DNA of 64,000 nt, taken from the NCBI GenBank assembly GCA_034423195.1, contig DAOUIZ010000066.1, positions 95,740 to 159,739 on the forward strand, in the 5' to 3' direction. The notes under the pieces were generated by a model. That model did not search any database, was not told the DNA's origin, and was given only the letters and a program-made list of their open reading frames with translations. Both the position numbers and the translations under genes were made by a program. Below are positions 206 to 39,937 of this stretch, piece by piece (the stretch's first letter is position 1; every line of letters starts with the position of its first letter). Origin of the DNA: Dehalococcoidia bacterium. Its GTDB lineage: Bacteria > Chloroflexota > Dehalococcoidia > Lucifugimonadales > UBA3495.

Positions 206-1429
206 ATGGCGGGCCCCATTTCCTTTGTTGAACGCGGCACCGTGACCACCCCGAGGGGGTTTACGGCGGGGGCGACCTACGCCGGGTTGAAGACCTATTC
301 CGAGGACAAGCTGGACCTGGGGATAATTTTGTCCGAGGCGCCCTGCGCGGGGGCCGGCGTCTTCACCACCAGCACCATCAAGTCCCCGACGGTTACGGTG
401 AACCGGGAGAACCTGGCACAATCGCCCACCCGGGCCATAATCGTAAACGCGGGGATAGCCAACACATCGGTGGGAGAGCAGGGGTACATAGACGCCAAGG
501 AAATGACCGCAGTGGCCGCGCAGAAGGTGGGCGCCAACCCGGAGGAGGTGCTGGTGTGCAGCACCGGGGTCATCGGCGTGGAGCTTCCCATGTCGCTGAT
601 CCGGGACGGCGTCGAGCGCATCGAGTTCGCCAATGGAGACGACGGCGGGCACGATGTGGCCCGGGCAATGATGACCACCGACACCCATCCCAAGGAGGTG
701 GCGGTGCGCTTTGAGGCCGGGGGGCAGCGGGTCCTGCTGGGCGGTGTGGCCAAGGGCTCCGGGATGATTCATCCCGACATGGCCACCATGCTTTCCTTCA
801 TCACCACCGACGCCGCCGTGGAACCGGGGCTGCTGGATGGCATGATAAAAGAAGTGGCCGATTCGTCGCTGAACATGCTTAGCGTCGACGGCGACACCAG
901 CACCAACGATACCCTGCTGGTGCTGGCCAACGGGATGGCCGGCAACGATCCAATTGCCGCCGGCACGCCCGACGCCGAGACCTTCAAGGAAGCCCTGTTG
1001 GAAGCCTGCATCTACCTGACGCGGGAACTGGCCAGGGACGGTGAAGGCGCGTCGCACCTGATTACCGTGGAGGTGGCGGGCGCAAAGGACGTGGACGACG
1101 CCCGCCGGGCGGCCCGCACCATCTCGGCCTCCAACCTGGTCAAGTCGGCGGTCTACGGGGCCGATCCCAACTGGGGGCGCATTTTGATGGCGGTGGGGCG
1201 CAGCGGCGCCGCTGCCGATGAAACCAAGATCGACCTCTTCATCAACGGGGTTTGCATCATGGAGGCGGGCAGCCCCATACCCTTCCACCGGGACGCGGTG
1301 GTCGCGCTGATGCGGCAGCCCGAGGTATCCATCCGAGTCCAGCTGAACCTGGGGGACGGGGAGGCCACCGCGTGGGGCTGCGACCTGACCCAGGAATACG
1401 TCATTATCAACAGCGCCTACACCACCTGA
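206..1429 (+). CDS. argJ: bifunctional ornithine acetyltransferase / N-acetylglutamate synthase ArgJ
   Basis: 407-aa ORF. It carries the self-cleavage region HPDMA|TMLSFITTDA typical of ArgJ and is followed by argB. Confidence 0.93.
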   Translation: MAGPISFVERGTVTTPRGFTAGATYAGLKTYSEDKLDLGIILSEAPCAGAGVFTTSTIKSPTVTVNRENLAQSPTRAIIVNAGIANTSVGEQGYIDAKEMTAVAAQKVGANPEEVLVCSTGVIGVELPMSLIRDGVERIEFANGDDGGHDVARAMMTTDTHPKEVAVRFEAGGQRVLLGGVAKGSGMIHPDMATMLSFITTDAAVEPGLLDGMIKEVADSSLNMLSVDGDTSTNDTLLVLANGMAGNDPIAAGTPDAETFKEALLEACIYLTRELARDGEGASHLITVEVAGAKDVDDARRAARTISASNLVKSAVYGADPNWGRILMAVGRSGAAADETKIDLFINGVCIMEAGSPIPFHRDAVVALMRQPEVSIRVQLNLGDGEATAWGCDLTQEYVIINSAYTT

Positions 1430-2513: not shown

Positions 2514-5249
2514 ATGAGCTACGACCTGGGCAACGACTCGGAAAACGGCCCTCCCCCGCTGCCGGGAATCAGCGCGAGGGCGCTCCATCGCCTGATCCGG
2601 GGAAGTTTAATCGCCGGAGCGGCGGTGACGCTGGGGTTGGCGCTGTGGTGGCTGGTGTACTTCTACACCAACCTGGTGTGGTTCGACCTGCTGGGGTTCG
2701 GGGATGTATTCTTCCAGATCGCCCTGGTCAAAGCGTTCCTGTTCTGCCTGGGGACGGGGGCTGCCTCCCTGATTCTCCTTTTCAATTTTTCCCAGGCCAT
2801 CAAGCTGTCCTGGGGACCAACATCCCTGCCGGTGACGGTGGACACTTTCCGCCTGATCCTTACGCTGATAGGCGCGGGGATGGCGCTGGTGCTGCTGATA
2901 GCCTCGCCCATATTCGGAACGGCGATGGCCGGCCGGTGGGAGTCGGTCTTCCTGCTGCTCGCCCGGGAGCCCTTTGGCATCTCCGACCCCGCCTTTGGCC
3001 GGGACTATTCCTTCTACGTCGTCATCCTGCCCGCTTTGAATTTCATCCAGGGTTGGCTTCTGGCCCTCGTTATAACGGTCATCGTTTCGTCCCTGGCGGT
3101 GTACCTGGCCATGTTCGGGCTGCGGGGCATGAACATGGTGATTACTCCCCGGATGCTGCGTCATGCCGCCATCCTGGGCGCTGTGCTGATGCTTGTCCTG
3201 GCCGTGGGGCACGTTCTCAGCATTTACGGCCTGGTGCATTCGGAGGGAGGGGCGGTCTACGGCGCGACCTACACCGACGTTCAGGCGAGGGTGCCGGCCC
3301 TGCTGCTGCTGACGGTCATCGCCCTGCTTTCCGCCGCCGGGATGGTGGGGAGCATCTTTTACCGCGGATTCCGGTTAATGGCGGCTTCCTTCAGCCTGTG
3401 GGCCATCGTGGCGGTGCTGGCCGGGTTGGTGTTCCCGCTGGTGTTCCAGCGGCTCCAGGTTTCCCCCAACGAGTTTGCCAGGGAAGCCCCATTCATCGAG
3501 CGAAACATCGAGGCCACCCGCGCGGCCTACCAGTTGGACCAGATTAAGGAGAGCGTCTATCCGGCGGACGGCAAGCTGGATGAGGCGGCCATCCGTGCCA
3601 ACCAGGACACCCTGGACAACATCCGGCTCTGGGACACCGGCCCCCTGCGGGATGCGTACAACCAGCTCCAGTTCATGAAGCTCTACTACAATTTTCTGAA
3701 CATGGACTCGGACCGCTACGAAATCGACGGGAGGGTCCGGCAGGTATTGGTTTCGGCTCGGGAACTGTACTCGGGAAACCTGGACCCGGCGGCGCAGAAC
3801 TGGGTCAACCAGCGTCTCCAGTACACCCACGGGTATGGCGTCGCCATGAGTCCGGCCACCGGGTTCACTCCGGGCGAGGGCCGCCCGGAGTTTTTCATAC
3901 AGGACATTCCGTTGACCGGCAAGCTGGAGATAACCCGTCCCGAGATTTACTACGGAGAATCCCCGGTGGACTACGCGGTGGTCAACACCAGCTTGCCGGA
4001 GGTCAATCCTAACGAGGAGTATGAGGGCTACGACGGCACCGGCGGGATACCGCTGGGGAACCTGTTCCAGCGGGCGGCTTTCGCGGCCCAGCTGGGCGAC
4101 ATCAACCTTCTGCTGAACGACCGGATTGGACAGGACAGCCGGCTGCAATACCGCCGGCAGATCTCGAACCGGCTGGGGGCGCTGGCGCCCTTCCTGAAAC
4201 TCGACCGGGACCCCTACCCGGTGTTGGACGACAGCGGAAAGCTATGGTGGATCCAGGATGCCTACACCACCACCGACCGTTACCCCTACTCGACGCCCAG
4301 CGAACACGGCTACAACTACATTCGCAACAGCGTCAAGATCACCGTAGACGCCTACAACGGGACGGCGGCCTTCTATGTCATAGACCCGGCGGACCCCCTG
4401 CTGCAGATGTACCGCAGGGCCTTTCCCGAACTATTCCACGATATGTCGGACATGCCGGACGATCTGCGAAAGCACATCCGGTACCCGGTGGGATTGTTTT
4501 CGACCCAGACCAAGCTGTACCTGCGCTACCACGTCACCGATCCGCAGGTATTCTTCAACCAGGCCGAGCAGTGGGCGATTCCGCTGGAGACGCGGATCGC
4601 CAAGCCCGGCGTCGCCGTGGTGCCGTCCTACCTGCAGTTGAAGCTGCCAGGGGAGGCTAACGAGGAGTTCATCCTGCTCATGCCCTTCACCCCTGCCGGG
4701 GAGAAGAAGAACCTGGTGTCGTGGCTGGCCGCCCGCAGCGACTGGCCCAACTACGGCCAGCTTCTGGCTTTCCAGCTGCCCACCGACCGTCAGATAGATG
4801 GCCCCAGCCAGGTTGAGGCCAGGATTGAAAACGACAAGACCGTTTCCCAGCAGTTTACCCTGTGGGGAGCCGGGTCAGGTTCCCAGATAATCCGCGGGCA
4901 GCTTCTGGTAATACCCATCTCCGGTACTATAATCTACGTTGAGCCGCTCTACCTGCAGTCCCAGGCGTTGAACTTTCCCGAGCTAAAACAGGTTATACTA
5001 GCCGACGACAGCAACCTGGTGATGGCGGATACCATCAACGAAGGCATCGCCATGCTGGTGGAAGCCAACGGTGCCGACGAGTCAGGCGGGCCCGCGTCCG
5101 CGCCGGTTGAAGCATCCGGGGACGGCGCTCTGCACCAGTTGCTGGAAATGGAACAGGAGATAGAAGGCCTCCAGGACTCATTGCGGCAATTGCGGCAGTC
5201 CCTGGAAGGCCTCAGAGAAACACTGGCCGAGCCGTCAGGGGAGCCATAG
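2514..5249 (+). CDS. UPF0182 family integral membrane protein
   Basis: 911-aa ORF with a multi-TM N-terminal third and a large C-terminal domain. Family-typical blocks are present: DRYPYS, VKITVDAYNGTAAFY, MPDDLRKHIRYP, PFTPAGEKKNLVSWLAARSD, LLVIPI...YVEPLYLQ. The C-terminus has a coiled-coil-like tail. Confidence 0.85.
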   Translation: MSYDLGNDSENGPPPLPGISARALHRLIRGSLIAGAAVTLGLALWWLVYFYTNLVWFDLLGFGDVFFQIALVKAFLFCLGTGAASLILLFNFSQAIKLSWGPTSLPVTVDTFRLILTLIGAGMALVLLIASPIFGTAMAGRWESVFLLLAREPFGISDPAFGRDYSFYVVILPALNFIQGWLLALVITVIVSSLAVYLAMFGLRGMNMVITPRMLRHAAILGAVLMLVLAVGHVLSIYGLVHSEGGAVYGATYTDVQARVPALLLLTVIALLSAAGMVGSIFYRGFRLMAASFSLWAIVAVLAGLVFPLVFQRLQVSPNEFAREAPFIERNIEATRAAYQLDQIKESVYPADGKLDEAAIRANQDTLDNIRLWDTGPLRDAYNQLQFMKLYYNFLNMDSDRYEIDGRVRQVLVSARELYSGNLDPAAQNWVNQRLQYTHGYGVAMSPATGFTPGEGRPEFFIQDIPLTGKLEITRPEIYYGESPVDYAVVNTSLPEVNPNEEYEGYDGTGGIPLGNLFQRAAFAAQLGDINLLLNDRIGQDSRLQYRRQISNRLGALAPFLKLDRDPYPVLDDSGKLWWIQDAYTTTDRYPYSTPSEHGYNYIRNSVKITVDAYNGTAAFYVIDPADPLLQMYRRAFPELFHDMSDMPDDLRKHIRYPVGLFSTQTKLYLRYHVTDPQVFFNQAEQWAIPLETRIAKPGVAVVPSYLQLKLPGEANEEFILLMPFTPAGEKKNLVSWLAARSDWPNYGQLLAFQLPTDRQIDGPSQVEARIENDKTVSQQFTLWGAGSGSQIIRGQLLVIPISGTIIYVEPLYLQSQALNFPELKQVILADDSNLVMADTINEGIAMLVEANGADESGGPASAPVEASGDGALHQLLEMEQEIEGLQDSLRQLRQSLEGLRETLAEPSGEP

Positions 5250-6510: not shown

Positions 6511-6635
6511 GGGGACTTTGCCGCTCCCCAGGCTGGAGGATATCCACTGTCCATAGCCCGGGGGATTCGATTTCGGGCTTGCCCCGGCGCCGGAACAGCC
6601 AAGCCACAGGATATTTGAAGTCAGAAAGGACGGAC

Positions 6636-6845
6636 GTGGCAGGACGCGAGTTCTACGTAATTATCGAAAAGGACGAGGACGGGGTTTTCGTGGGCGAAGC
6701 CCCACAGTTAAATGCGTGTTACAGCCAGGGCCGTACCGTCGACAATTTGATCGAAAACATCAAGGAAGTCATACAGCTCTGTCTTGACGAAGGGGACCCT
6801 GAGTCCGCGGGGGAATTCGTAGGGATTCACCGTATAGAAGTCTAA
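6636..6845 (+). CDS. HicB-like (UPF0150) antitoxin-fold protein
   Basis: FYVIIEKDEDGVFVGEAPQLNACYSQGRTVDNLIENIKEVIQLCLDE matches the HicB/UPF0150 N-terminal fold pattern. I prefer the GTG at 6636, which follows AAAGGA, over the track start at 6579. GC content is visibly lower than in neighbouring genes. Confidence 0.6.
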   Translation: MAGREFYVIIEKDEDGVFVGEAPQLNACYSQGRTVDNLIENIKEVIQLCLDEGDPESAGEFVGIHRIEV

Positions 6846-33979: not shown

Positions 33980-34039
33980 GTAACACCCTCGTTACAAAGA
34001 GGCAACACCCTTGTTACAAATCAGCAATAGCCGGTTAAC
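33980..34039 (+). promoter_or_regulatory. phased pentamer operator, site 1 (GlnR-box-like), upstream of amt-1
   Basis: GTAAC(33980)-n6-GTTAC(33991)-n6-GCAAC(34002)-n6-GTTAC(34013)-n6-GCAAT(34024)-n6-TTAAC(34035), in strict 11-bp register. Confidence 0.6.
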
Positions 34040-34087
34040 AACTGTTCCATAAACTCGGCATGAATTGGCCACCAAAAAGGAGGAGAT

Positions 34088-35413
34088 ATGTTACGGAGAG
34101 CCTTATTGCTGGTGATGGTGGGGTTGATGGCAGCCGGAATCCTGACCGGCTACAACCTGGCTTTCGCCCAGGACGTCACTTCGGATGCCGACAAGCTGGA
34201 CCAGGGCAACAACGTCATCTGGATGGTCGGCGCGTTCCTGGTGTTCTTCATGCAGGCCGGTTTCGCCTTCCTGGGTGCGGGACTAATCCGGAGCAAGAAC
34301 ACTACCAACTACCTGACCAAGAGCTTCATGGACTTCGCCATCGCTTCGCTGTCCTTCTGGGCGTTCGGTTTCGCCCTCATGTGGGGCACGTCGGCGGCGG
34401 GCATTGCGGGAACCACCAACTTCTTCCTGAGGGATGCCGCGGACGGACAGACCTACGTTGACTTCGTCTTCCAAATGGTCTTCGCAGGAACGGCCGCCAC
34501 CATCGTGGCTGGAGCCATGGCCGAGCGGACCAAGACCCAGACCTACCTGGCGTACAGCTTCCTGATCGGCGCAGTAATCTACCCTCTCTACGGACACTGG
34601 GTATGGGGCAGCGGCTGGCTGGGCAACCTCGAAGTCATCGGCCTGCCCGCTGCCGCTGACTACGCCGGGTCTGGCGTTGTCCACGCCGTTGGCGGCTTCC
34701 TGGCCCTGGCCGGCGCGGCCGTCGTGGGAGCGCGCAAGGGCAAGTTCAACGCCGACGGAACATCCAATATCATTCCCGGCCACAACATTCCCTTCGTGGT
34801 CATTGGAACGTTCATCCTGTTCTTTGGCTGGTTCGGGTTCAACATCAACACGGGCGACTCCATAGGACTGAATGCCATCAACACGCTGCTGGCGGGCGCG
34901 ACCGGCTCGGTGGTGGCCCTGTACATCCAGTTGGCCCGCACCGGCAAGCTGGACATTCTCATGGCCTGCAACGGCGCGCTGGCCGGACTGGTTGGAGTGA
35001 CGGCTCCGGTAGCCTTCATTGCGCCCTGGTCGGCTGTCGTGATAGGCGCCTTGGCGGCTCCGATAATGATGATCTCGGTCAGCGTCATCGAGAAGGTGTT
35101 CAAGATTGACGACCCGGTGGGGGCCATCTCGGTCCACGGCACCTGCGGCCTGTGGGGTCTCTTGGCGGTAGGAATCTTCGCCAATGGGAACAACGGAGTT
35201 ACCGGGCTGGTCGCCGGCGATTCGATGCAGATCGTTTCGCAGCTCATCAGCATGGGCGTGGTCCTCGCCTGGGCCCTGGTCACCGGCTTTGCCATGTTCC
35301 TGGCCCTGAAGGGCACCATGGGTGTGCGGGTGTCCGAAGAAGAGGAAGAGGTTGGTCTGGACGTTTCCGAGCAGGCCGTCCACACCTATCCCGAACAGCT
35401 TTCGCAGGCTTAA
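34088..35413 (+). CDS. amt: ammonium transporter (Amt family) with signal peptide
   Basis: 441-aa polytopic ORF with GGAGGAG upstream. Amt blocks are present: FMQAGFAFLGAG, DFAGSGVVH-like YAGSGVVHAVGG, VHGTCGLWG. Confidence 0.93.
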   Translation: MLRRALLLVMVGLMAAGILTGYNLAFAQDVTSDADKLDQGNNVIWMVGAFLVFFMQAGFAFLGAGLIRSKNTTNYLTKSFMDFAIASLSFWAFGFALMWGTSAAGIAGTTNFFLRDAADGQTYVDFVFQMVFAGTAATIVAGAMAERTKTQTYLAYSFLIGAVIYPLYGHWVWGSGWLGNLEVIGLPAAADYAGSGVVHAVGGFLALAGAAVVGARKGKFNADGTSNIIPGHNIPFVVIGTFILFFGWFGFNINTGDSIGLNAINTLLAGATGSVVALYIQLARTGKLDILMACNGALAGLVGVTAPVAFIAPWSAVVIGALAAPIMMISVSVIEKVFKIDDPVGAISVHGTCGLWGLLAVGIFANGNNGVTGLVAGDSMQIVSQLISMGVVLAWALVTGFAMFLALKGTMGVRVSEEEEEVGLDVSEQAVHTYPEQLSQA

Positions 35414-35442: not shown

Positions 35443-35487
35443 GGGGAGCCGGAGGTTGTGGCCTCCTCCGGTTCCCCTTTCTCTCTA
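35443..35487 (+). terminator. rho-independent terminator after amt-1
   Basis: GGGGAGCCGGAGG-ttgtgg-CCTCCTCCGGTTCCCC (one mismatch) followed by TTTCTCTCT. Confidence 0.65.
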
Positions 35488-35523: not shown

Positions 35524-35561
35524 GTAACATATTGTTAACATCGGCGACAATCCTTTGTAAC
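35524..35561 (+). promoter_or_regulatory. phased pentamer operator, site 2, upstream of micro-ORF 1
   Basis: GTAAC(35524)-n6-TTAAC(35535)-n6-GACAA(35546)-n6-GTAAC(35557). Confidence 0.55.
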
Positions 35562-35620
35562 AAGTTGACGGCACAATACACCTATCGAGTTCGCTAGGAG
35601 CGCAGAGGAGTACAGGTTTA

Positions 35621-35719
35621 ATGGAAATCATCGCCGCCGCAGGAGCATTCATCGGTCTGTTCAGTCTTTGGGTAATCATTCCCAAGGTTCTGATGAAGAA
35701 GAACGCTCCAACCAAGTAG
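35621..35719 (+). CDS. micro-ORF 1: 32-aa single-TM peptide MEIIAAAGAFIGLFSLWVIIPKVLMKKNAPTK
   Basis: Below the ORF-track size cutoff. GAGGAG lies 10 nt upstream. It is a paralog of micro-ORF 2, with differences enriched at synonymous sites. It has its own operator and its own terminator. Confidence 0.6.
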   Translation: MEIIAAAGAFIGLFSLWVIIPKVLMKKNAPTK

Positions 35720-35754
35720 CCTTTCCGAGCAACATTCGTTTCCCGAGAGGTTCC

Positions 35755-35796
35755 GAAGACCGGGGACTGGCTAAGCCCCCGGTCTTCTGCCGTTTG
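35755..35796 (+). terminator. rho-independent terminator after micro-ORF 1
   Basis: GAAGACCGGGG-actggctaagc-CCCCGGTCTTC (11-bp stem) followed by TGCCGTTT. Confidence 0.65.
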
Positions 35797-35818
35797 GCGT
35801 GAGCGAGTCTCGAGAGAT

Positions 35819-35856
35819 GTAACAAAAAATTAACATCTTGGAAAACAGCATGTAAC
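35819..35856 (+). promoter_or_regulatory. phased pentamer operator, site 3, upstream of micro-ORF 2
   Basis: GTAAC(35819)-n6-TTAAC(35830)-n6-GAAAA(35841)-n6-GTAAC(35852). Confidence 0.55.
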
Positions 35857-35907
35857 ACTTGGACTGCAACATGACTTCATAACGTTTCAGCCAGGAGTTT
35901 CGCAGCA

Positions 35908-35997
35908 ATGGAGATCGCAGCCGCAGGAGCCTTCTTTGTCCTACTTTTCGCCCTTTGGGCAGTCCTGCCCGCCAGGCTGATGAAGAACCGGAAATAA
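35908..35997 (+). CDS. micro-ORF 2: 29-aa single-TM peptide MEIAAAGAFFVLLFALWAVLPARLMKNRK
   Basis: Below the ORF-track cutoff. AGGAG lies 10 nt upstream, the same spacing as for micro-ORF 1. No strong terminator precedes amt-2, only a 9-bp hairpin at 36041..36078 without a U-tract. Confidence 0.6.
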   Translation: MEIAAAGAFFVLLFALWAVLPARLMKNRK

Positions 35998-36168
35998 ACC
36001 GGACCCTTGCCTGACGGAAGACCTTAACGTACCGGCCACCCAGCCCATGTTTCCTGGTTATGCCAGCGGCATGGGCTGTAATGCGTTAAGAGGGCCATTT
36101 CCAAGAGGAGTCCGGGGCAGCGGCGCAGAGTCGGCTGTCGCGGGAGTTGAGGAGAGGAGCACTTACCC

Positions 36169-37380
36169 ATGAATAGCGGAGACATCACCTGGATACTGGC
36201 GTCATCGGCCCTGGTCTTGCTGATGACCCCCGGCCTGGCGTTTTTCTACGGCGGGCTGGTGCGGCGGAAGAATACCAACGCGACCATCATGCACTCCTTC
36301 ATGTCCATCGGGCTGGTTGGAGTGGTCTGGGTCCTGTGGGGATACAGCCTGGCCTTCGGGCCGGATTTCATGGGGTGGGGCATAATCGGTGACCTGTCAT
36401 GGTTCGGACTGGCAGGGGTGAGCGCCACGGAAGCCGGTCCCTACGCGGACAATATCCCCCACCAGGCGTTCATGGTTTTCCAGGGGATGTTCGCGATCAT
36501 AACTCCGGCGCTGATCACCGGGGCCTTTGCCGAGCGGATGAAGTTCAGCACCTACCTGGTCTTCATCGTCCTGTGGGTGACGATAGTCTACGCGCCGATA
36601 GCCCACTGGGTGTGGGGAGACAACGGCTGGCTGGGCGGACTGGGAGCCCTGGACTTCGCAGGCGGGACAGTGGTCCACATTAACTCGGGAATCGCAGCAC
36701 TGGCAGCCGCCCTGATCGTTGGACGCCGCCTGGGGTTCAAGACGCAGCCGATGCCTCCGCACAACGTCCCGATGGTGGTCCTGGGAGCGGCCCTGCTCTG
36801 GTTTGGCTGGTTCGGGTTCAACGCCGGTAGCGCGCTGGCGGCAGATGGCACCGCGGTCAATGCCTTCGTCGTCACCAACGCGGCAGCGGCGGCGGCAGTC
36901 CTGGCCTGGGTGGCGGTCAGTTGGGTATTCGGCAAGCATCCCAGCGTAATCGGAGCGGCGTCGGGAGCCGTCGCCGGCCTGGTTGCGATCACTCCGGCGG
37001 CGGGATTCGTGGGGGTGGTCCCGGCCATCATCATCGGCCTGGGAGCGGGCGTCATCTGCTACGCCGCGATTGAACTGCTGTTGAAGCTGAACATTGACGA
37101 TGCGCTGGCGGTGTTCGGAGTACACGGCATGGGTGGTGCCTGGGGTGCGCTGGCGACCGGGCTTTTCGTGGGCATCGGGTTTGGAGCCCTGGACATAGGC
37201 CGGGGCGAGCAAGTCCTGTATCAAATCGTGGGAATCTTCGCCGCCGCGGCCTGGTCCTTTATCATCACTTCGGTGATACTTCTGGTCCTTAAAGCAGTCA
37301 TGGGGTTGCGGGTGCCGGATGCCGACGAAGAAGCCGGCCTGGACTTGTCAGTACACGGGGAAGGTTCTTACACTGGATAG
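36169..37380 (+). CDS. amt: ammonium transporter (Amt family)
   Basis: 403-aa polytopic ORF with LMTPGLAFFYGG, DFAGGTVVHINSG and VHGMGGAWG Amt blocks. Confidence 0.93.
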   Translation: MNSGDITWILASSALVLLMTPGLAFFYGGLVRRKNTNATIMHSFMSIGLVGVVWVLWGYSLAFGPDFMGWGIIGDLSWFGLAGVSATEAGPYADNIPHQAFMVFQGMFAIITPALITGAFAERMKFSTYLVFIVLWVTIVYAPIAHWVWGDNGWLGGLGALDFAGGTVVHINSGIAALAAALIVGRRLGFKTQPMPPHNVPMVVLGAALLWFGWFGFNAGSALAADGTAVNAFVVTNAAAAAAVLAWVAVSWVFGKHPSVIGAASGAVAGLVAITPAAGFVGVVPAIIIGLGAGVICYAAIELLLKLNIDDALAVFGVHGMGGAWGALATGLFVGIGFGALDIGRGEQVLYQIVGIFAAAAWSFIITSVILLVLKAVMGLRVPDADEEAGLDLSVHGEGSYTG

Positions 37381-37457: not shown

Positions 37458-38459
37458 ATGAGTTACAAGGCGGAATACATCTGGATTGACGGACAGGAGC
37501 CGACAGCTAAGCTCCGTTCCAAGGGCAAGATCGTGCCGGACGGTGAGGAGCCCCCCGTCTGGGGATTCGACGGTTCCAGCACCAGCCAGGCTCCCGGGGA
37601 AGCATCGGACTGTGTGCTGAACCCGGTTTTCGTTTGCCCGGACCCGGTGCGGGGCGGCAACAACAAGCTGGTCATGTGCGAAGTGCTGCTGACCGACATG
37701 ACTCCCCATCCTTCCAACACGCGGGCCGCCTGCGCCGCCGCGGATGAAAAGTACCGCAGCTTCGACACCTGGTTCGGCATCGAGCAAGAGTACACCTTCT
37801 TCAAGGGATCCCGCCCGTTGGGCTTCCCGGAAAATGGCTTCCCCCCTCCCCAGGGCGGCTACTACTGCGGCGTGGGGATCGACGAAGTGTTCGGGCGCCC
37901 GGTGGTGGAAGAGCACATGGACGCCTGCCTGACCGCTGGTCTGGAAATCTCCGGTATTAACGGAGAGGTGATGCCGGGGCAGTGGGAGTTTCAGATCGGC
38001 CCGTTGGCGACCCCGGCTGTTGGGGACCACCTGTGGGTTGCCCGGTGGCTGCTCTACCGCATCGCCGAAGACCACGACATTACCGCTACCCTGGACCCCA
38101 AGCCGGTCCGCGGAGACTGGAACGGCGCGGGGGCGCACCACAACTTCTCCACCAACGAGATGCGGGGATCCTACGACGCCTGCGTGGCGGCCGCCGAGGC
38201 GCTGGGAGCCAATCACCACGAGCACATCGTCAACTACGGACACCGCATCGAAGAGCGGCTGACCGGACTCCATGAGACCTGCGCCTACACCGAGTTCCGG
38301 TACGGCGTGTCGGACCGGGGCGCATCGGTACGGATTCCCTGGCAGGTGGCGCGGGATGGCAAGGGTTACATCGAGGACCGCCGCCCCAACGCCAACGTTG
38401 ACCCCTACGTCGCCACCCGGCTGATTGTCGAGACGGTCTGCGGAGCGGCATCAGCGTAA
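37458..38459 (+). CDS. glnII: glutamine synthetase type II (eukaryote-like GSII)
   Basis: 333-aa ORF with N-terminus MSYKAEYIWIDGQEPTAKLRSK plus GINGEVMPGQWEFQIGP and NGAGAHHNFS, hallmark GSII blocks. Confidence 0.9.
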   Translation: MSYKAEYIWIDGQEPTAKLRSKGKIVPDGEEPPVWGFDGSSTSQAPGEASDCVLNPVFVCPDPVRGGNNKLVMCEVLLTDMTPHPSNTRAACAAADEKYRSFDTWFGIEQEYTFFKGSRPLGFPENGFPPPQGGYYCGVGIDEVFGRPVVEEHMDACLTAGLEISGINGEVMPGQWEFQIGPLATPAVGDHLWVARWLLYRIAEDHDITATLDPKPVRGDWNGAGAHHNFSTNEMRGSYDACVAAAEALGANHHEHIVNYGHRIEERLTGLHETCAYTEFRYGVSDRGASVRIPWQVARDGKGYIEDRRPNANVDPYVATRLIVETVCGAASA

Positions 38460-38596
38460 CTGCTCCCGGCCATCCCTGTGTCTTGCTATCGCCAAACGGC
38501 GCCGTTCCCCAAGGGGCGGCGCCGTCCTGTCGCACCAAACCATTGAAGTGCTCAGTCAGGCAAGAATTACCCCAGCCCCGATGGAGTCTGTAAGCC

Positions 38597-39937
38597 ATGA
38601 TGAACGATGATCGCGCCGCCGAGCGTGAGTATGTACTGAGGAGCGCCCGGGACAATGACGTGAAGTTCATCCGTCTCTGGTTCACCGACATCCTGGGGAA
38701 CCTGAAGGGGTTCGCCATTACCGTGGACGATCTGGAAGACGCCATCGAGCGGGGGGTGGGATTCGACGGGTCGGCGATTGAGGGGTTCGCGCGCATCAAC
38801 GAAAGCGACATGCGGGCTTTCCCCGACCCCGCGACGTTCACTTTGCTACCATGGCGTCCCAGGCAGAATGCCGTGGCGCGGATGTTCTGCGACATCACCA
38901 CGCCGGACGGGAAGCTGTTTGCCGGGGACCCGCGCAGCGCGCTGAAGCGGAACCTGGAACGGGCGGCGGGCCTGGGATACACCTACTACGTGGGGCCGGA
39001 GCTGGAATTCTTCTACCTGAAGGACCAGAACACGCCCGAGCCGCTGGACAACTTCGGCTACTACGATCAGCAGTCGACGCATCCCACGGCGGACCTGCGG
39101 CGGGACACGGTGCTGAACCTGGCCGATATGGGCATTCCGGTCAAATACTCCCACCACGAGGGAGCCCCCAGCCAGCATGAAATAGATCTGCAGTACACCG
39201 ACGCCCTGACAATGGCGGACAACGTCACAACCGCGAAGCTGGTAATCAAGGAACTGGCGCAGCTGCGGGATGCCTACGCCTCCTTCATGCCCAAGCCGCT
39301 GACGGGAGAGAACGGGTCCGGGATGCACGTCCACCAGTCGCTCTTCCTGGGGGACCAGAACGCCTTCTTCGAACCCGAGGACGAATCCCACCTTTCGGAG
39401 ACCGGCAAACGGTTCATCGCCGGCCTGCTGCATCACGCCAGGGAGATCACGCTGGTGACCAACCAGTGGGTGAATTCGTACAAGCGTCTGGTGCCGGGGT
39501 ACGAGGCCCCGGTTTACGTTTCCTGGGCGCGGGTGAACCGGTCGGACCTGGTGCGGGTACCGGCGTACAAGCCGGGGTACGAGAGCTCGATCCGGGTGGA
39601 GTACCGGGCTCCCGACCCAGCATGCAATCCCTACCTGGCTTTCAGCGTGATGCTGGCGGCGGGCCTGAAAGGGATTGAGGAGGACTACCCGCTGCCGCTT
39701 CCCATTGAGGACAACGTCTTCGAGATGTCGACCGCGGAGCGGCAGGCCAAGGGTATTGGCAATCTGCCCGGAAGCCTGGGTGAGGCTTTGTCTCTGGCCC
39801 GGGACAGCGGTCTGCTTCGGGAGGCATTGGGTGAGCACATCTACGGGGGACTGATCCGCAACAAAGAGCGGGAATGGAGCGACTACCGGGCCACCGTGAC
39901 CGACTACGAGGTCAGGAACTACCTGCCGGTGCTGTAA
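38597..39937 (+). CDS. glnA: glutamine synthetase type I
   Basis: 446-aa ORF with FIRLWFTDILGNLKGF, HHEGAPSQHEID, KPLTGENGSGMHVHQS and NPYLAF blocks. Confidence 0.92.
   Translation: MMNDDRAAEREYVLRSARDNDVKFIRLWFTDILGNLKGFAITVDDLEDAIERGVGFDGSAIEGFARINESDMRAFPDPATFTLLPWRPRQNAVARMFCDITTPDGKLFAGDPRSALKRNLERAAGLGYTYYVGPELEFFYLKDQNTPEPLDNFGYYDQQSTHPTADLRRDTVLNLADMGIPVKYSHHEGAPSQHEIDLQYTDALTMADNVTTAKLVIKELAQLRDAYASFMPKPLTGENGSGMHVHQSLFLGDQNAFFEPEDESHLSETGKRFIAGLLHHAREITLVTNQWVNSYKRLVPGYEAPVYVSWARVNRSDLVRVPAYKPGYESSIRVEYRAPDPACNPYLAFSVMLAAGLKGIEEDYPLPLPIEDNVFEMSTAERQAKGIGNLPGSLGEALSLARDSGLLREALGEHIYGGLIRNKEREWSDYRATVTDYEVRNYLPVL

Follow-up and report, generated by a model that had tools for sequence, protein, structure and literature searches.

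The two micro-ORFs between the ammonium transporter genes amt-1 and amt-2 are members of an undescribed Chloroflexota family of predicted membrane peptides of about 27 residues, and the coding constraint seen across this family indicates that they are not chance ORFs. We put at about one in two the probability that such a peptide is a nitrogen-regulated, single-pass accessory or modulatory subunit acting on an Amt1-type transporter, and possibly on Amt2. Both micro-ORFs lie on the + strand in the 755-nt gap that separates the two amt genes in the window (the whole stretch of DNA analysed, 64,000 nucleotides), as the original prediction had described for a paralogous pair. The features on which the argument draws are these:

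33980..34040, + strand: array of GTAAC/GTTAC/GCAAC pentamers with 11-nt spacing upstream of amt-1, putative GlnR-type operator
34088..35413, + strand: amt-1, Amt1-type ammonium transporter with N-terminal signal peptide (Pfam PF00909, E 5.7e-116)
35443..35477, + strand: hairpin after amt-1 (GGGGAGCCGGAGG / CCTCCGGTTCCCC), likely the amt-1 terminator
35524..35561, + strand: ORF1 operator, GTAAC (35524), TTAAC (35535), GACAA (35546) and GTAAC (35557), exact 11-nt spacing
35605..35610, + strand: Shine-Dalgarno sequence GAGGAG of ORF1, ending 10 nt before the ATG
35621..35719, + strand: micro-ORF 1 (ORF1), predicted 32-aa single-pass membrane peptide MEIIAAAGAFIGLFSLWVIIPKVLMKKNAPTK (ORF list; profile match P0001, 77 bits)
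35755..35787, + strand: G+C-rich hairpin after ORF1, 14-bp stem and 5-nt loop, probable terminator (from the fold)
35819..35856, + strand: ORF2 operator, GTAAC (35819), TTAAC (35830), GAAAA (35841) and GTAAC (35852)
35893..35897, + strand: Shine-Dalgarno sequence AGGAG of ORF2, ending 10 nt before the ATG
35908..35997, + strand: micro-ORF 2 (ORF2), 29-aa paralogue MEIAAAGAFFVLLFALWAVLPARLMKNRK (ORF list; profile match P0002, 65.8 bits)
36024..36089, + strand: nested hairpin (TTAACG..CAGCCCATG-loop-CATGGGCTG..CGTTAA) in the ORF2/amt-2 spacer
36169..37380, + strand: amt-2, Amt2-type ammonium transporter without signal peptide (Pfam PF00909, E 6.2e-127)
37458..38459, + strand: glnII-type glutamine synthetase, 77 nt 3' of amt-2, in the usual place of glnK
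38597..39937, + strand: type I glutamine synthetase (glnA)

The ORF1 and ORF2 peptides are 52% identical, and their nucleotide copies differ far more at synonymous than at nonsynonymous sites (pS 0.82, pN 0.38), which agrees with the earlier proposal that the synonymous differences reflect translated, selected peptides. The Shine-Dalgarno sequences were likewise found at exactly the predicted distance from each start codon. The description of the micro-ORFs as unannotated holds for their lack of a name, but both are already called as genes on a public metagenome scaffold with the same sequence. The two ORFs also define N-terminal peptides that run up to the first Lys or Arg, e.g. MIALVAAGAFVGLFGMWVVLPR.

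A profile of the two peptides retrieved 47 cluster representatives, all of 27-85 aa, at E<=1e-3 among 1.84 billion proteins. A peptide-seeded metagenome scan, for which an 11-sequence alignment served as the seed (a 35-sequence alignment was too diverse), yielded 59 loci, and several copies occur per genome or assembly, e.g. MKWU01 in loci L092 and L113. The ATG stands nine codons before an invariant Phe (55 distinct nucleotide versions) and keeps its fixed position in 54 of the 58 distinct copies; 53 of these 58 have a Shine-Dalgarno core within -18..-4, and 47 of 58 copies are 27 codons long. Among the 55 versions, entropy at codon positions 1, 2 and 3 was 0.74, 0.41 and 1.44, respectively, so that the third position varied 3.5 times as much as the second. 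Two checks proposed with the original prediction, conservation of the reading frame in related genomes and dN/dS on homologues, both came out in favour of the peptides: frame, ATG and Shine-Dalgarno sequence persist across more than 50 distinct versions, and dN/dS was about 0.22-0.25 (Nei-Gojobori, 55 distinct versions), indicating purifying selection. In close relatives ORF2 has diverged strongly at the nucleotide level, with the frame and the hydrophobic pattern kept. These results weigh against the view that the region is conserved as a non-coding RNA or DNA element in which the ORFs are incidental and untranslated; conserved RNA hairpins do adjoin the ORFs, as that view would have it, but a search of Rfam gave no match to the micro-ORF regions, and we find the idea hardly credible.

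Both peptides were expected to consist of one hydrophobic helix and a basic tail, and this is what hydropathy and charge point to (mean Kyte-Doolittle hydropathy of 2.3 over residues 3-21, net charge of +4 past Pro21). The conserved residues A6, A9/F10, L13/F14, W17/V18 and P21 fall on one face of the predicted helix, with the basic tail following. The invariant and near-invariant residues recur with a spacing of 3-4, and the conservation moment was 0.359, compared to 0.15 +/- 0.08 for shuffled sequences (p=0.005). Such a one-sided conserved face suggests a specific partner. With 27-32 aa and a single hydrophobic helix, the peptides are of the size of small transmembrane accessory proteins. 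Searches of Pfam and NCBIfam gave no family at E<=10 except one chance match, and with the same family models no homology was seen to KdpF, CydX, AcrZ or other named small-protein families. No PDB chain scored better than E=1.2, searching the literature with the peptide motifs was without result, and none of the profile matches was a fusion of the peptide with Amt. We also considered an origin of the micro-ORFs as relics, either of the signal peptide of Amt1 or of a transmembrane segment of an Amt protein; this was rejected, as the family HMM matched no Amt frame in six-frame searches.

The original prediction that each micro-ORF is preceded by its own copy of the operator found upstream of amt-1 was borne out by four-pentamer arrays, which follow the pattern GTAAC-n6-TTAAC-n6-GAnAA-n6-GTAAC upstream of both. 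The motif GTAACAN5TTAACA (<=2 mismatches) had five matches in the window against 0.65 expected, and four of the five fall upstream of amt-1, ORF1 or ORF2; the match at 6706..6722 on the - strand, within a HicB-like ORF, is probably due to chance. Across the family, four GTAAC-like pentamers with 11-nt spacing stand upstream of almost every copy, and a second-copy operator orthologous to that of ORF2 was found in L092, L094 and L137. In 430 kb of loci there were 82 stringent operator matches, 57 of them at 60-130 nt upstream of a micro-ORF. The remaining 25 comprise 19 directly upstream of amt genes (17 amt1-type, 2 in L053), five extra ones inside micro-ORF promoters and the chance match at window position 6706.

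The GlnR cis-element has been described as four protomers bound to pentamers gTnAc/GaAAC separated by 6 nt, next to the -35 position (PMC10235972). The four-pentamer layout found here corresponds to it, the consensus being actinobacterial and the host a member of the Chloroflexota. We infer the nitrogen regulation of the micro-ORFs from this motif similarity to actinobacterial GlnR sites alone; as the array is common to amt-1 and the micro-ORFs and has the GlnR layout, the peptides would probably be made together with the transporters at nitrogen scarcity. In one amt-micro-amt locus, a gene for a 223-aa regulator with a Trans_reg_C match adjoins. As in the actinobacterial GlnR regulon (amtB, glnA, glnII), four GTAAC-like pentamers with 6-nt gaps precede a weak -10 element, and the regulated genes here are amt and, probably by read-through, glnII. 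The differences are that the host belongs to the Chloroflexota, that the regulator is putative, and that a small membrane peptide as a member of the regulon is not reported in the GlnR literature searched. The GlnR-type operator architecture would thereby be extended from Actinobacteria to Chloroflexota.

The family HMM and synteny check against related genomes, likewise proposed at the outset, revealed recurrent tight linkage to Amt1-type genes. In six-frame searches, HMM matches just upstream of amt occurred in SAR202/Dehalococcoidia loci L001 and L002 and in the Chloroflexi locus L053, and none was found in the other 77 Amt2-seeded loci, which belong to other clades. An Amt gene lies within 700 nt in 30 of the peptide-seeded loci, and several arrangements can be told apart. 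In the window and about 25 marine loci the order is amt1, one or two micro-ORFs, amt2 and glutamine synthetase (GS), so that the marine SAR202 micro-ORFs stand between amt1 and amt2. In P0031, P0036, P0046 and P0047 the amt1-type gene comes first and the micro-ORF follows 39-69 nt later as the last gene, after which a convergent gene or a terminator comes next. L146 has the operator, the micro-ORF, 50 nt and then the amt1-type gene, and L053 has the micro-ORF, about 150 nt and the amt1-type gene. The Amt neighbours in these arrangements are all Amt1 orthologues; where the micro-ORF is divergent, the adjacent Amt shares 49-58% identity with amt-1 and about 35% with amt-2. The functional tie to Amt that had been proposed is thus supported, but the conserved partner in all the lineages examined is the Amt1-type, signal-peptide-bearing transporter and not Amt in general. 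Amt1-type genes of other phyla were found without the peptide, and Amt function as such therefore does not depend on it.

The statement that the micro-ORFs sit where glnK usually lies is true as a trend. Where a micro-ORF precedes amt2, the gene following amt2 encodes GS in 15 loci and PII in 2, whereas without a preceding micro-ORF it encodes PII in 44 loci and something else in 24. Both glnK and a micro-ORF are present in L053, L110 and the P0044 locus. A shared operator and operon membership or adjacency, as expected of transporter accessory proteins, were found, with the caveat of 14 loci among the 44 well-flanked peptide-seeded ones (about one third) that have no amt nearby. In these, the micro-ORF unit has its own classical terminator and adjoins Amidohydro_2, acyl-CoA-dehydrogenase-like or alpha/beta-hydrolase genes. 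The link of the family to Amt is therefore strong and not obligatory.

These amt-free units bear on the alternative that nitrogen starvation induces the peptide as a small membrane protein with a target other than Amt: another membrane protein, or the membrane in general, with effects such as depolarisation or growth slowing like those of the stress-induced YohP of E. coli. The linkage to amt would then reflect only a shared regulon. A more general role in nitrogen starvation would fit the stand-alone units, which lie far from amt and carry an operator and a terminator of their own, and also the several copies per assembly, and since the operator is common to amt1, co-regulation alone could explain the clustering. 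Stress-induced single-TM proteins of 27 aa with general membrane effects are known, such as YohP (PMC12648545). However, divergent lineages repeatedly show the 39-69 nt linkage to Amt1-type genes, in either gene order, and pure regulon membership does not predict this. No micro-ORF was found tightly linked to another gene of the regulon either, as the GS-adjacent copy in L124 also follows an Amt1-type gene, and the one-sided helix face again suggests a specific partner. On balance, we regard a target other than Amt as rather unlikely.

The peptide could also be a nitrogen-starvation counterpart of type I toxins, much as TisB or DinQ is under LexA control. Traits that would fit a toxin-like membrane peptide are the small size, a hydrophobic single-TM segment, a charged tail, a stress-type operator, and the several stand-alone copies, whose 3' regions are structured. 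Published precedents are DinQ and TisB (PMC3567139). Purifying selection and deep conservation across lineages of 57-69% G+C and marine SAR202 speak against such a toxin, as do its co-transcription with a transporter at 39-69 nt spacing, an amt1 operon context atypical for toxins and the lack of a Pfam or NCBIfam match, and we consider it highly improbable.

Within the window, ORF1 is a stand-alone unit of operator, Shine-Dalgarno sequence, ORF and hairpin. It had been credited with a strong terminator of its own; the 14-bp G+C-rich hairpin is present (fold of the region -47.9 kcal/mol, z -4.6) and nearly invariant in the close relatives L157 and L158, but its T tract is weak, and for that reason the hairpin was absent from the calls of a simple terminator scan. 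ORF2 is probably not an independent gene but the first cistron of a transcript that continues through amt-2 and glnII; the operator motif scan detected no operator of its own for amt-2 and no match in the amt-2/glnII spacer. The nested hairpin between ORF2 and amt-2 is better conserved in close relatives than ORF2 itself, had no match in Rfam, and may serve in partial termination, attenuation or transcript processing. A 'CCAUG...CAUGG' hairpin was tried as a feature common to all copies. The covariance model, built from SAR202 single-copy loci, found only that group (16 loci), and because it missed the window and the stand-alone copies, homology of the hairpins across the locus classes is unproven.

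The same hairpins raise the question of a regulatory leader peptide, in which translation of the micro-ORF or stalling of the nascent chain would set read-through past the downstream hairpin into amt-2 or amt1. A micro-ORF is the first cistron before amt in the window (ORF2), in the SAR202 single-copy loci, in L053 and in L146, a conserved hairpin lies between micro-ORF and amt, and amt2 has no operator of its own; short conserved arrest peptides such as TnaC and SpeFL exist. A leader, however, should always stand upstream of the gene it regulates, and this does not hold for P0031, P0036, P0046 and P0047, four divergent cluster representatives in which the micro-ORF is 3' of amt1 with no downstream gene to regulate, nor for the stand-alone copies, which end in a classical terminator. 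The hairpins kept downstream of the micro-ORFs start 34-63 nt past the stop codon, probably beyond masking by a terminating ribosome. C-terminal length is variable (26 to 49 or more residues), runs of regulatory codons are absent, and in composition the peptide matches a TM helix followed by a positive-inside tail. Taken together, these features make a leader peptide improbable.

In the accessory-subunit reading that we prefer, transcription would start at a promoter overlapped by the four GTAAC-like sites with 11-nt spacing, and peptide and transporters would probably be made together when nitrogen is scarce. The hydrophobic helix (residues about 3-21) would end at the invariant Pro and be followed by the Lys/Arg-rich tail, and the positive-inside rule would place the N-terminus outside and the tail in the cytoplasm. 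The conserved face (A6, A9/F10, L13/F14, W17/V18, P21) would then most likely pack against the Amt1-type transporter, possibly also Amt2, with the basic tail close to the C-terminal region of Amt, which is acidic and cytoplasmic, and the subunit may affect the stability, assembly or gating of the transporter. Judged from their sequences and genomic setting, the micro-ORF peptides are at present the leading candidates for a partner that sits with an Amt1-type transporter in the membrane. A bolder version, which we offer tentatively, is that they are the first integral-membrane subunit of the Amt/Mep/Rh family, binding the Amt1 trimer and tuning or gating it under nitrogen limitation; they might partly replace the GlnK plug in glnK-less loci of SAR202 and related Chloroflexota, and where tandem copies have diverged, one could serve Amt1 and the other Amt2.

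Few membrane proteins have been studied as closely as the Amt/Mep/Rh channels, and to our knowledge their known regulators are all soluble: PII/GlnK, kinases and, in one archaeon, sP36. A membrane-embedded partner, if confirmed, would add a new layer of control over these channels, and it would account for the control of ammonium uptake in glnK-less Chloroflexota loci. In the dark ocean, SAR202 bacteria are abundant and ammonium is in short supply. With their 27 aa and invariant F10/F14/P21 pattern, the peptides of the family also lend themselves to cheap tests by co-expression with Amt, structure prediction and searches of metaproteomes.

Among known systems, GlnK (PII) resembles the micro-ORF peptides in that its gene adjoins amt and is co-regulated with it, whereas the protein, 112 aa long, forms a soluble trimer that acts as a plug at the cytoplasmic exit of Amt, and is unlike them in sequence, size and location. 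The original prediction knew of no small Amt partner. This does not hold for the cytoplasm: sP36 of Methanosarcina mazei, a soluble 61-aa protein of the nitrogen regulon, binds AmtB1 and tunes its activity, moving to the membrane on nitrogen upshift and bridging GlnK1 to AmtB1 (PMC10714827). It does hold for membrane-embedded small partners of Amt/Mep/Rh proteins, none of which is described in the reviews PMC10710835 and PMC12648545; in the text of a marine small-protein survey, AmtB appears only in a co-occurrence module (PMC12856327). Both sP36 and the peptides described here are small proteins of a nitrogen regulon (putative in our case) with an ammonium transporter as the target (proposed in our case). 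From its description, sP36 is set apart from the micro-ORF peptides, which are bacterial, 27-32 aa long, almost wholly hydrophobic and encoded in loci mostly without glnK. YohP (27 aa, E. coli), TisB and DinQ are similar in size, single TM helix and stress-induced expression, but they act on the membrane in general, have no link to a transporter operon and are narrowly distributed. The closest parallels are KdpF, AcrZ, MgtS, MgtR, MgtU and CydX, all of them small proteins with one TM helix and a transporter or membrane complex as binding partner (PMC10710835, PMC12648545). Like these, the micro-ORF peptides have fewer than 50 aa and one predicted TM helix, their genes lie in or beside the operon of the presumed target and would be co-induced by the same stress signal, and the single conserved helix face suggests helix-helix packing. 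They differ in having no sequence relationship to them in Pfam or NCBIfam, in their extra stand-alone copies, and in the presumed target, an Amt/Mep/Rh-family channel that they are proposed to bind. The role suggested here for the peptides would, by analogy, parallel that of KdpF on KdpABC, AcrZ on AcrB and MgtS on MgtA.

Two short ORFs on the + strand, ORF1 and ORF2, lie in the 755 nt that separate amt-1 from amt-2; their positions and Shine-Dalgarno (SD) spacing were confirmed in the window sequence: the 3' end of GAGGAG (ORF1) or AGGAG (ORF2) lies exactly 10 nt from the ATG. The original prediction called them unannotated, which holds insofar as they are nameless; however, both were already called as genes on a public metagenome scaffold with the same sequence. 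The two peptides are 52% identical. Each ORF has its own copy of the operator (four GTAAC-like pentamers at 11-nt spacing), as had been proposed, and a related array precedes amt-1:

33980..34040, array upstream of amt-1, related to the ORF1 and ORF2 operators
34088..35413, amt-1 (Ammonium_transp, E 5.7e-116)
35524 GTAAC, 35535 TTAAC, 35546 GACAA, 35557 GTAAC, operator of ORF1, exact 11-nt spacing
35621..35719, +, ORF1, 32 aa
35755..35787, hairpin 3' of ORF1, G+C-rich 14-bp stem
35819 GTAAC, 35830 TTAAC, 35841 GAAAA, 35852 GTAAC, operator of ORF2, exact 11-nt spacing
35908..35997, +, ORF2, 29 aa
36024..36089, nested hairpin TTAACG..CAGCCCATG-loop-CATGGGCTG..CGTTAA between ORF2 and amt-2
36169..37380, amt-2 (Ammonium_transp, E 6.2e-127)
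37458..39937, glnII-type gene (333 aa), then a type I glutamine synthetase (GS) gene, after amt-2 in the place of glnK

Of 1.84 billion representative proteins, a profile built from both peptides matched 47 at E<=1e-3, every one of 27-85 aa. The family core reads M-E/I-x-I/L-x-A-A/G-G/A-A-F-V/I-G-L-F-x-L/M-W-V-V/I-L-P-K/R-x-L/F-L/I-K/R. Neither Pfam nor NCBIfam holds a model of the family, it has no PDB relative, its region has no Rfam family, its members are named in any source only as 'hypothetical protein', and its peptide motifs were not found in the literature searched. In a genome scan seeded with Amt-2, the closest relatives of the window were SAR202/Dehalococcoidia (Chloroflexota, 66-72% identity), and of the 80 loci searched by a six-frame HMM scan only three had the peptide: L001, L002 and L053, the Chloroflexota loci that also carry an Amt1-type gene (with N-terminal signal peptide, like amt-1); Amt1-type genes of other phyla in this sample had no micro-ORF. 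A metagenome scan seeded by the peptide alone, and therefore free of bias toward amt, gave 59 loci, mostly from marine or deep-ocean samples. By these sequence comparisons, the micro-ORFs are a real, conserved family, and new as a family. In locus L081, tandem micro-ORFs (651..734 and 1064..1147) are one residue apart and identical in the 45 nt before the ATG (5' UTR and SD), which points to the entire unit having been duplicated, or gene-converted, recently.

In a codon comparison of 55 distinct nucleotide versions, the mean column entropy at codon positions 1, 2 and 3 was 0.74, 0.41 and 1.44 bits, and dN/dS (Nei-Gojobori), calculated across the family, was about 0.22 (median) or 0.25 (summed). 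Third positions thus vary most and, with pS 0.82 against pN 0.38 for ORF1 versus ORF2, the earlier claim that synonymous changes mark translated, selected peptides was upheld. Among 58 distinct copies, 54 have the ATG exactly 9 codons 5' of an invariant Phe, 53 carry an SD core and 47 are 27 codons long. The nucleotide sequence of ORF2 is strongly diverged in L157 and L158, close relatives of the window, yet its frame and hydrophobic pattern (MEVIAAGAAFVVLFSLWVALPHKLLKK) are kept, and its flanking operator and hairpins are nearly invariant. Taken together, these observations make a purely RNA- or DNA-level cause very unlikely, and selection appears to act on the peptide.

The peptide has a strongly hydrophobic stretch at residues 3-21 (mean Kyte-Doolittle 2.3), with an invariant Pro21, and then a tail of net charge about +4, which by the positive-inside rule suggests a single-pass helix, N-out/C-in. 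The conserved positions A6, A9/F10, L13/F14, W17/V18 and P21, with 3-4 spacing, fall on one helix face (conservation moment 0.359 vs 0.15 +/- 0.08 in shuffles, p = 0.005), the pattern expected of a helix packed against a specific partner helix.

The gene neighbourhoods fell into four classes:

Class A: operator, amt1-type gene, 39-69 nt, micro-ORF, then a convergent gene or terminator (cluster representatives P0031, P0036, P0046, P0047)
Class B: operator, micro-ORF, 50-150 nt, amt1-type gene (L146, L053)
Class C: operator, amt1, terminator, operator, one or two micro-ORFs, hairpin, amt2, GS (window and about 25 marine loci)
Class D: stand-alone operator, micro-ORF and classical terminator (14 of 44 well-flanked peptide-seeded loci)

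Class A loci have 57-69% G+C, with gltB further downstream in L145, and tandem class C copies also occur in L083, L092, L094 and L137. Every Amt neighbour in class A or B is an orthologue of the window Amt-1 (49-58% identical to it, only about 35% to Amt-2) with an N-terminal signal peptide, which makes the Amt1-type transporter the recurrent partner. A leader peptide is a weakened explanation: in class A the micro-ORF is the last gene, in class D a terminator follows, and the hairpins begin 34-63 nt past the stop codon. Given the stand-alone copies, the peptide may instead serve more broadly in nitrogen starvation, or have another target. Class D neighbours are Amidohydro_2, acyl-CoA-dehydrogenase-like or alpha/beta-hydrolase genes; in marine metagenomes, the units of L085-L093 (micro-ORF about 5001..5084), L095-L100, L107, L109 and L113 lie 300-500 nt 5' of Amidohydro_2, acyl-CoA-dehydrogenase-type-2 or alpha/beta-hydrolase genes. 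The peptide might also act like a type I toxin, a role that fits poorly with the operon context and deep conservation. Where a micro-ORF lies upstream, amt2 (without signal peptide) is followed by GS in 15 loci and PII (GlnK-type) in 2, and otherwise by PII in 44 and something else in 24, counts that are descriptive since the loci are phylogenetically non-independent. No PII gene was detected within the 64-kb window.

The window has five matches to the motif GTAACAN5TTAACA (<=2 mismatches), where 0.65 would be expected, and four of them are at the amt-1, ORF1 and ORF2 arrays. The fifth (6706..6722, - strand, 1 mismatch) lies within a HicB-antitoxin-like ORF (6579..6845, + strand, identified by eye from its translation) and, with no micro-ORF or nitrogen gene downstream, is probably due to chance. 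Nearly all family members, with or without an amt gene close by, are preceded by the four-pentamer array. When 430 kb of micro-ORF-containing loci were scanned with a stringent motif, 57 of 82 matches lay 60-130 nt 5' of a micro-ORF; the other 25 comprised 19 directly 5' of amt genes (17 amt1-type, and 2 amt2 genes of L053), five extra ones within micro-ORF promoters and the chance match at window 6706, and none lay upstream of the neighbouring enzyme genes. This layout matches the actinobacterial GlnR cis-element, in which pentamers gTnAc/GaAAC with six-base gaps are bound by four head-to-tail protomers around the -35 region (PMC10235972), and the window, with amt, glnII, glnA and GTAAC boxes, has the same set as the GlnR regulon of Actinobacteria. 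From this layout and a Trans_reg_C regulator at the P0044 locus, nitrogen control of the micro-ORFs can reasonably be inferred. The order at that locus is a 223-aa regulator (Trans_reg_C match), amt, micro-ORF, amt, PII, a 30-aa ORF and GS; the second tiny ORF, in the PII/GS gap, could encode another small protein of the system.

No operator motif match was found in the amt-2/glnII-type GS intergenic region or upstream of amt2 in SAR202 loci, and transcription from the ORF2 promoter probably runs through the hairpin at 36024..36089 and so covers ORF2, amt-2 and glnII. This hairpin, without an Rfam match, is almost invariant in L157 and L158, unlike the strongly diverged ORF2, and may serve amt-2 as a processing site or as a regulatory element in cis. 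In L001 (5907..5985) and 15 other SAR202 loci (e.g. L002 5907..5985, L104 5130..5208), a conserved 79-nt element, AAACAATCCATGCTAGCC..GCATGGATTGTTT followed by TTGTCTAAATAAAAACGACGG, lies about 60 nt 3' of the micro-ORF and 75 nt 5' of amt2; it shows a few compensatory changes and no T tract, and its covariance model matches at this position only. Stand-alone copies have instead a shorter hairpin, UCCAUGC..GCAUGGA, followed by a T tract. In two close relatives, insertions separate amt1 from the micro-ORFs: two DDE-transposase genes in L157 (4395..9362, on a 4.7-Mb contig) and a 295-aa unannotated gene in L158 (2588..3475). The unit of operator, both micro-ORFs and amt2 remains together, which fits the micro-ORFs having their own promoter.

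The most economical reading, to which we give roughly even odds (about 0.5), is that the micro-ORFs encode a nitrogen-regulated single-pass peptide acting as an accessory or modulatory subunit of the Amt1-type transporter, the whole basis being synteny, shared operators and sequence constraint. The peptide would associate in the membrane with Amt1-type transporters, perhaps also Amt2, and modulate or assist them; speculatively, its basic tail would sit on the cytoplasmic side beside the acidic C-terminal region of Amt (RVSEEEEEVGLDVSE in Amt-1, RVPDADEEAGLD in Amt-2). The original prediction was largely right, as family, codon constraint, operators and synteny fit it, and it offers a solid, testable lead in a well-studied channel family and an ecologically important uncultured group. 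Its remark that no small subunit or partner peptide of Amt was known to it needs correction: sP36 of Methanosarcina mazei, a soluble 61-aa archaeal protein, bridges GlnK1 to AmtB1 and is the only such partner described so far (PMC10714827). A 2023 review of transporter modulation lists for Amt PII proteins only (PMC10710835), and neither ammonium nor AmtB is mentioned in a review from 2025 on small membrane proteins of bacteria (PMC12648545). The proposed role resembles that of KdpF, AcrZ and MgtS, accessory or modulatory subunits of their own transporters (PMC10710835, PMC12648545), and, judged from sequence, the micro-ORF peptides would join this known class of small transmembrane modulators of transporters.
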